A stretch of 64,000 bases of DNA from Heterodontus francisci. Taxonomy: Eukaryota. Location: positions 108,334,407 to 108,398,406 of the forward strand of contig NC_090377.1 of NCBI RefSeq assembly GCF_036365525.1. The letters run 5' to 3'. The notes below the pieces were generated by a model. The model did no database searches. It saw nothing but the letters and a program-made list of their open reading frames with translations, and was not told the DNA's origin. Both the position numbers and the translations under genes were made by a program. This document shows positions 46,754-47,887 of the stretch, one piece after another (the stretch's first letter is position 1; the number at the start of each line of letters is the position of its first letter).

Positions 46754-47887
46754 GAAATTGCTACTTGCATGAGTTGGGTCATGCTTGACGGGGACATGGT
46801 CACGAGTGTTGAAATAGAATGCAGGAACATAACCTTGGGAACGACAGCACCAACATCATCGACTCCAGCACCAACATCATTGACCCCCGCACCAACATCA
46901 TCGACCCCGGCACCAACATCATCGACTCCAGCACCAACATCATCGACTCCAGCACCAACATCATCGACCCCCGCACCAACATCATCGACCCCGGCACCAA
47001 CATCATCGACTCCAGCACCAACATCATCGACTCCAGCACCAACATCATTGACCCCCGCACCAACATCATCGACCCCGGCACCAACATCATCGACTCCAGC
47101 ACCAACATCATCGACTCCAGCACCAACATCATCGACCCCCGCACCAACATCATCGACCCCGGCACCAACATCATCGACCCCGGCACCAACATCATCGACT
47201 CCAGCACCAACATCATCGACTCCAGCACCAACATCATCGACTCCAGCACTGACATCATCGACTCTAACATCATCGATAACTCCAACACAAAGATCATCGA
47301 CTCCAACATCAACATCAGCATCGTCGACTCCAGCACCGACATCATCGATAACTCCAACACTAACATTATCAACAACTGCAACACCAACATCAACACAAAC
47401 ACAAACATCAACACCAACACCAACATCAACACAAACATCAACACCAACACCAACACAAACATCAACTGCAACACCAACATCAACACAAACATCAACACCA
47501 ACACCAACATCAACTGCAACACCAACATCAACACAAACATCAACACCAACACCAACATCAACACAAACATCAACACCAACACCAACATCAACTGCAACAC
47601 CAACATCAACACAAACATCAACACCAACACCAACATCAACACAAACATCAACACCAACACCAACACCAACATCAACTGCAACACCAACATCAACTGCAAC
47701 ACCAACATCAACACAAACATCAACACCAACACCAACATCAACTGCAACACCAACATCAACACAAATGTCAACACCAACACCAACAACAAGAACAACAAAA
47801 AAGAAATTACCACCGTTGTCATCGTCATCAGAAAGCAGTGAATCATCATCAGAAAGCAACGAATCATCAGGACGATGCAGTTGGAAG
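46754..47887 (+). CDS. SPP2: SPP2-like gene exon 4: second cystatin disulfide loop, mucin-like PTS repeats and S-x-E serine cluster
   Basis: ctgtag|GAA...AAG|gtaaat, 1134 nt open in phase 0: [31 protein letters not shown](APTSSTP)19-...-([14 protein letters not shown])[31 protein letters not shown]. The C-x17-C loop has the spp24 spacing. Confidence 0.85.
46847..47245 (+). repeat. Coding minisatellite, 19 x 21 nt (APTSSTP) with 84-nt and 168-nt higher-order structure
   Basis: GCACCAACATCATCGAC(T/C)CC(A/C/G) units. Variants cycle every 4 units, and the TTG variant recurs at units 2 and 10. Confidence 0.95.
47375..47785 (+). repeat. Coding Thr-rich tandem repeat (mixed 24/18-nt units: [16 protein letters not shown])
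   Basis: ACACCAACATCAACACAAACATCA and ACACCAACATCAACTGCA units, all in frame. Confidence 0.9.

Follow-up and report, generated by a model that had tools for sequence, protein, structure and literature searches.

Four clades of chondrichthyan spp2 genes are defined in the available part of PMC13188829 (BMC Biol 2026). According to that text, the catshark gene spp2.L2 has a repeat insert between its cystatin-like domain and its Ser-rich region, and its expression is highest in denticles, at 78 TPM, followed by dental lamina, at 63 TPM. Expression of the spp2.Like genes is described there as epithelial, and in the catshark as low and not detected in situ. BMP2 binding in the family is assigned there to the end of the cystatin domain and the Ser cluster is named as a target of Fam20C, while an Arg-rich C-terminus is considered ancestral in spp2, since it is also found in sarcopterygian and lamprey proteins. 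The authors leave spp2.Like out of the shared BMP2/calcium-phosphate function, citing its divergence, and call its function in scale and tooth epithelium hard to grasp. Some spp2.Like copies lie off the spp2 cluster, with its nme9/vps8/sh3bp4/arl4c synteny. In tooth RNA-seq data, an spp24 gene of unspecified paralogue also groups with mmp20 and bmp3/7 among late-tooth genes of one cluster (available part of 10.1101/2025.08.26.672487). The words 'mucin' and 'glycosyl' are absent from the main text of PMC13188829, and a literature search, with most subscription journals outside it, found nothing on spp2 together with chondrichthyan and mucin, and only PMC13188829 for spp2-like.

The DNA analysed here (the window) is a stretch of 64,000 nucleotides from Heterodontus francisci. 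A tblastn search with 26 relatives located a single such gene in it, with five forward-strand exons that join in frame without a stop or frameshift (Table 1). The open frame runs for 519 codons to 50444, or 572 codons with exon 5 read through. When six pieces of the gene were scanned against Pfam, exon 3 was the only one to match any family, namely Spp-24 (E 7.1e-07, 29.8 bits, cut-off 26), and Cathelicidins (PF00666) matched none of them; the spp2-family membership proposed in the first-pass annotation is thereby borne out. The cysteines at 81, 92, 105 and 123 are the four conserved ones and align with those of relatives.

Table 1. Features of the gene and its repeat region, in window coordinates
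Feature	Position	Strand	Basis
TATA-like box (candidate), about 75 nt upstream of the start codon	25058..25065	+	seen in sequence
Exon 1, coding part, signal-peptide-like (MKIILFIFAAVQILYCS), GC donor, phase 1	25140..25191	+	tblastn with relatives; peptide judged by eye
Exon 2, with extra Cys pair	25315..25439	+	splice model, tblastn with relatives
Exon 3, core of Spp-24 cystatin-like domain, Cys 81 and 92	34284..34406	+	Pfam PF07448
Exon 4, 378 codons, both ends in phase 0, holds the entire repeat region	46754..47887	+	acceptor and donor consensus
End of cystatin-like domain, Cys 105 and 123, then sequon NIT	46754..46846	+	tblastn of P0008: 68% identity, E 1.6e-7
Array 1: 19 APTSSTP-type units of 21 nt, higher-order structure at 84 and 168 nt	46847..47245	+	sequence
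Degenerate heptad copies, in frame, Thr/Ser-rich	47246..47374	+	sequence
Array 2: TPTPTS and other modules, 6-nt base, 119-nt exact match at 78-nt lag	47375..47785	+	sequence
Thr run and basic patch ahead of the Ser cluster; junction also in several relatives	47786..47818	+	
Ser/Glu cluster, four S-x-E motifs, candidate Fam20C sites	47819..47869	+	family feature (PMC13188829, available part)
Exon 5, cationic tail rich in Arg, Trp and Gly, probably the last exon; stop on read-through at 50602-50604	50320..50604	+	splice phase, weak matches
138-nt interspersed-repeat fragment within the exon 5 end, between two AGAA copies	50518..50655	.	7 other similar places in window
Probable former end of the reading frame (RRNWRE, stop), past the repeat fragment	50656..50676	+	P0003 ends in similar residues

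Exon 1 encodes a hydrophobic stretch of 17 residues that matches the N-termini of relatives and was judged by eye to be a candidate signal peptide. Intron 1 starts with GC rather than GT (25192-25193), within a donor consensus that is otherwise strong. Both of the additional cysteines of exon 2 are present in 15 of 22 Like-type rows and in none of 33 other rows, that is, among the rows compared the pair is confined to spp2.Like-type proteins. In the available text of PMC13188829 there is no mention of this pair, of the sequon behind the last cystatin Cys or of the Cys pair with which the tail begins. At the other end of the splice model, the relative P0009 continues beyond the position where exon 4 ends, into similar letters. 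By a simple consensus count, exon 4 contains no convincing internal donor or acceptor: the best internal GT/GC sites score 5/9, compared with 6-8/9 for the five model donors. Because these sites reach at most 5/9 and there is no GT at all from 46809 to 47322, splicing out of the repeat is without sequence support, including by way of a donor just after RNITLGTT, a route named in the first-pass annotation.

The repeat region is an in-frame insert rich in Pro, Thr and Ser, located between the last cystatin Cys and the Ser cluster as had been proposed, but not exactly so, since 8 residues precede the first unit and 11 follow the end of the array. The first description covered 46847..47785 but named only the 19 heptads, and left out the degenerate zone and the second array that this span also contains. 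The whole insert has 313 codons, of which 62% encode Ser or Thr (193 residues) and 22% Pro, with no acidic residue. Over the full 572-residue protein model Ser and Thr still make up 43%, and exon 4 contains 29 x-T-P-x-P motifs; the motifs and the Ser/Thr count are at most suggestive of O-glycosylation. On composition, the available part of PMC9417175 defines mucin domains by more than 20% Thr+Ser, a PTS-rich domain and exonic repeats, and the window protein has all three; the same definition also includes predicted or measured O-glycosylation at more than 4% of residues and within-species variation in copy number, and the window represents a single haplotype.

Array 1 could be read directly, and its units are as first described: 17 of 19 encode APTSSTP, and units 2 and 10 encode APTSLTP. 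Only three columns vary among the units. The last two codons are ACT CCA (A), ACC CCC (B) or ACC CCG (C), and the units are ordered ABCA ABCA ABCA ABCC AAA. The reported cycle of 4 units (84 nt) is significant, with 12 of 15 matches at lag 4 (p = 0.00019, or p = 0.0026 when any lag from 2 to 8 is allowed; permutation, 200,000 shuffles), and is lost after unit 15. Units 9-15 are identical to units 1-7 over 147/147 nt, including the Leu variant, which returns 8 units (168 nt) further on, and this shows the recent block duplication that had been suggested. The S-to-L allele is a C-to-T change at a CpG. The simplest history would be an 84-nt block, followed by the CpG change that gives Leu, and then a duplication of 168 nt. 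The length of array 1 is divisible by 3, its internal variants are ordered, and the window contains no N. As a coding minisatellite with higher-order structure, array 1 is in itself ordinary.

The synonymous variants had been taken to reveal the coding frame. It is correct that none of the three wobble alleles alters the protein in the T/P/S frame, and that each does so in the overlapping NIID frame. One antisense frame is equally unaffected by these three, however, and the NIID frame by the S-to-L allele. Only 4 alleles count as independent, and for 3 of them to be synonymous in the T/P/S frame is not significant (P = 0.11 at a background of 1/3, from 21 of 63 possible changes), which gives at most a hint that the array sequence is under purifying selection. 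In the degenerate zone, substitutions fall mostly at codon positions 1-2. On the evidence of the splice phase and of homology, it is the gene structure that fixes the frame of the array, and not synonymy.

Three other frames are open across array 1, as expected because 83-100% of the 720 codon-order permutations of the heptad keep them open. A cruder null, in which codons were shuffled, closed one antisense frame in all 2000 cases; this shuffling destroys the 40 distinct codon junctions of the repeat, and under a null that preserves the units the antisense frame is open in 83% for array 1. The antisense frames were therefore rejected as coding, their openness being a by-product of the unit structure. 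The NIID frame was also rejected, as it would drop the last two cystatin cysteines and has no good acceptor.

Relatives were collected in a search with P0001, an spp24-like protein of Heterodontus francisci, which returned 68 further proteins (69 in all), among them P0004 from Hemitrygon akajei; word-index homolog searches were nearly blind, with 1 hit, 2 hits and 0/5 candidates. In 40 of the 69 the Ser cluster lies 2-11 residues past the last cystatin Cys, which agrees with the earlier statement that the two are adjacent in spp24. A P/T/S-rich stretch follows the last Cys in 14, while 8 have no aligned last Cys and 7 are short, atypical or mis-predicted. The spacer domain is thus not lineage-specific, as had been supposed: it is common to 14 relatives and in print for catshark spp2.L2 (PMC13188829, available part). 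The linker has 332 residues in the window gene and 42-104 in the 10 relatives with both a spacer and a Ser cluster. The cluster is absent from the predicted sequence of 4 of the 14; P0014, for example, has about 190 P/T/S-rich residues and no Ser cluster. Repeat units vary from protein to protein, with periods of 7, 8, 14, 16 and 20 residues among others, and the APTSSTP heptad occurs in none of the 69. Within this set, only that heptad and the length of the linker are particular to the window gene. Of the 14 proteins with a spacer, 9 have an N-glycosylation sequon no more than 11 residues from the last Cys. The 14 include a horn shark protein and a stingray protein (P0004), so that the spacer is found in at least one shark and one ray.

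A tree was made from 47 cystatin-domain rows, after exclusion of 23 of 70 (13 mammal-like, 10 truncated or mis-predicted). The window domain falls in a set of 11 rows (support 99/98), each with a P/T/S stretch. This set is nested in one of 19 rows (support 97/96), which includes 4 rows with no such stretch, and in which some members have a short or weak spacer (15 residues in P0005). A single origin of the spacer is not rejected (p-AU 0.51), and in 10% of the bootstrap trees the rows that carry it come together. Identity of the window domain is highest to P0001 (56%), and is 48% to P0006. Probes from Table S18 of PMC13188829 (available part) were matched by eye to our rows, spp2.L2 to P0006, spp2.1 to P0043-type proteins and spp2.3s2 to P0038. 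With these labels the window gene falls in the spp2.Like clade, apart from spp2.1, 2.2 and 2.3, and its relation to spp2.L1, L2 and L3 is an open fork in the tree. P0006 belongs to the same 11-row set as the window gene. It has a different repeat and neither a Ser cluster nor an Arg tail, unlike the L2 described in the text of PMC13188829, to which P0009 is a better fit; P0006 may represent another gene model, or there may be a labelling mismatch.

As in SPP2, a Ser-rich region with S-x-E motifs is followed by an Arg-rich C-terminus. Exon 5 probably reads on as the last exon, the alternative being a splice from 50444 to 50658; candidate acceptors for a sixth exon after 50444 were considered, and none was adopted. 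Pairwise matches to exon 5 are weak (P0003, E 4e-4; P0056 in the +1 frame, E 2e-4), and that to P0015 is not significant (E 0.52). The first 69 residues of the tail contain 24 Arg/Lys, 7 Trp, a Cys pair and no acidic residue, a net charge of +24. Tails of relatives have net charges of +13 to +26 in 7 of 8, and a similar Cys pair in 5 of 8 (the eighth row is mis-parsed). A search of the ESM Atlas with the tail gave no usable hit.

Several further observations concern this end of the gene. A Cys pair opens the cationic tail (47870-47887 and 50320-50505). The +1 frame of exon 5 gives an acidic peptide rich in Gly, Asp and Glu, which is used in P0056, apparently through a mis-spliced model. The repeat fragment near the end of exon 5 is in frame and lies six codons ahead of the probable older stop, and it also gives the possible acceptor at 50658. 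P0056 has the +1-frame letters of the stretch that ends in this stop uninterrupted, and an ATTAAA follows the stop at 50759.

The 13 other open reading frames scanned gave reverse-transcriptase, transposase-type, weak or no matches, and no nme9, vps8, sh3bp4 or arl4c neighbour was recognised in the window. A match to reverse transcriptase (RVT_1) is found at 2379-3119, within 2379-3122. Pieces of a DDE_Tnp_4 transposase, together with a weak Myb/SANT-like match, occur at 6051-6940 and 16901-17206, a pairing known from Harbinger-type transposons. By eye, similar LINE-like fragments appear to occupy a large part of the window, among other places in introns 2 and 3 of the spp2.Like gene, and two stretches resemble each other, one upstream of the gene (24430-24900) and one in intron 2 (about 30350-30660).

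The sequence and its relatives together establish the exon structure, frame, composition and clade of the gene, and the stalk as a trait of the subfamily, with turnover of its units and with unit and length differing between genes. AlphaFold2 was used to predict the structure of P0007 as a stand-in. The head block is confident (pLDDT mostly 87-95), while nearly everything past residue 131 is below 50. In a Foldseek search with this model, the top ranks were mostly proteins of cystatin fold (cathelin, fetuin-B and cystatins), the best having E 1.1e-3, with no match at E 0.001.

We consider it reasonably likely, with a probability of about 0.6, that the gene encodes a secreted chondrichthyan spp2.Like protein of tooth and denticle epithelium, in which an O-glycosylated stalk lies between the cystatin head and a phospho-Ser cluster with a cationic tail. 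The predicted protein, which is expected to be secreted, falls into four parts: its head is cystatin-like, a stalk of 313 residues rich in Pro, Thr and Ser comes next, and a Ser/Glu cluster leads into the cationic Arg/Trp/Gly tail. Dense O-GalNAc glycosylation of Ser and Thr produces extended stalks, with a length of 0.25-0.34 nm per residue. If it acquires such dense glycosylation in the Golgi, the stalk of the window protein would form an extended, hydrated and protease-resistant rod of some 80-105 nm. The TPAP context serves as a reporter of single-site O-glycosylation (PMC8249670, available part). By analogy with the family, the Ser cluster would be phosphorylated by Fam20C and would bind calcium phosphate, and the tail may bind polyanions. 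With a rod-like stalk and an end that binds through the Ser cluster and tail, the head, which is of the BMP-binding type, would therefore be held apart from the end anchored in mineral or matrix. The site of action would be a matrix or surface coat derived from tooth and denticle epithelium. The stalk itself could have grown by slippage or unequal crossing-over, from single heptads to the 84-nt block and then the 168-nt block, and selection probably acts on Ser/Thr content and frame rather than on the exact sequence.

This mucin reading of the stalk, which we did not find in print, is plausible, and would offer a model, open to testing, of what may be a matrix protein of odontodes. The position of the insert is already published for spp2.L2; what is new is incremental, namely the mucin-stalk reading across the subfamily and the extreme length. 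A more ambitious version, which we regard as doubtful, is that a cystatin-fold protein has been mucinized throughout this subfamily in sharks and rays. It would then be a protein of the odontode surface with an extra-disulfide head, an O-glycosylated rod of fast turnover, a block of phospho-Ser and an Arg/Trp tail looped by Cys, acting either as an organiser of enameloid mineral, the role of SCPP proteins in bony vertebrates, or as a source of cathelicidin-like antimicrobial peptide, with the stalk length tuned for each gene or species. Were this true, the window gene would be the longest case seen.

A rival explanation is a cathelicidin-like precursor in epithelial defence, which would be retained in the surface coat by its pro-domain of cystatin fold and its mucin stalk, and from which a protease would free the Arg/Trp-rich, Cys-looped tail as an antimicrobial peptide. 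The charge, Trp content and Cys pair of the tail, and the charge and Cys pair in most tails of relatives, would suit such a role, as would the epithelial expression of spp2.Like (PMC13188829, available part). In addition, the best PDB sequence matches of the family profile are cathelin domains (E 7e-6 to 5e-5), and P0004 scores above the Pfam cut-off for Cathelicidins (29.4 vs 21). Spp-24 nevertheless outscores Cathelicidins in all three of the proteins that match both, and the search with the tail returned nothing usable. The Arg-rich C-terminus is, moreover, ancestral to spp2 as a whole, and expression peaks in denticles and dental lamina rather than in gills, spleen or blood (both from the available part of PMC13188829). 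We therefore regard a defence precursor as unlikely. Slightly less probable still is a nearly neutral stalk, produced by a minisatellite that expanded within a flexible linker and was tolerated there, with length and glycosylation immaterial to function. Unit and length do differ in every relative, the four alleles informative on selection give no significant result, the degenerate copies contain many non-synonymous changes, and the spacer is short or weak in some members of the 19-row set. Against this, the units, however different, all keep the frame and a richness in P/T/S in proteins from at least one shark and one ray, and the flanks are conserved, as seen in the recurrent sequon. A pattern in which P/T/S content is kept is also that of mucin repeats under constraint in the available part of PMC9417175.

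A final possibility is that the array is not translated as proposed here, being spliced out, read in the NIID or an antisense frame, part of a pseudogene, or an artefact of assembly. The open alternative frames, the GC donor at exon 1 and the repeat insertion in exon 5 might point this way, and the exact copy number could be mis-assembled. However, the donor and acceptor counts speak against removal of the array, the loss of two cystatin cysteines against the NIID frame, and the permutations against any meaning in the open frames; exons 1-5 are free of stops and frameshifts, and the ordered variants, a length divisible by 3 and a window with no N do not suggest an artefact. We consider this very improbable.

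Compared with known systems, the window gene resembles cathelicidins (PF00666) in having an N-terminal domain of cystatin fold followed by a variable cationic C-terminal part. It differs in that Spp-24 is the better family match, in the long P/T/S stalk and phospho-Ser-type cluster that lie between these two parts, and in its five exons, compared with four in cathelicidins. With bony-vertebrate SPP2/spp24 (PF07448) it shares the four conserved cystatin cysteines, the Ser cluster with S-x-E motifs and a basic C-terminal region, whereas its linker of 332 residues contrasts with 2-11 and its extra Cys pair has no counterpart in the 33 non-Like rows. SPP2 of bony vertebrates is single-copy and made mostly in liver, and spp2.Like is multi-copy and epithelial (PMC13188829, available part). 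With catshark spp2.L2 and the spp2.Like clade as described in the same source, the window gene shares a cystatin-like domain, repeat insert, Ser-rich region and Arg-rich C-terminus, and its putative signal peptide would correspond to theirs. The repeat of catshark spp2.L2 is PTST/PTSTST, unlike the 19 APTSSTP units and second array of the window gene, which together with the zone between them span 313 residues, and the insert is treated there as a feature of one catshark gene. Finally, rodent Muc10, derived from Prol1 (PMC9417175, available part), is likewise a secreted protein that gained exonic PTS repeats, with copy number and unit varying and Ser/Thr content kept. The precursors of mammalian mucinization described in that source are all proline-rich and mostly from the SCPP locus. 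The host here is in contrast a folded cystatin-family protein, and the repeat, unlike that in Muc10-type cases, is placed between functional modules. The mucin-type reading of the stalk would extend mucinization from proline-rich precursors to a folded host of the cystatin family.
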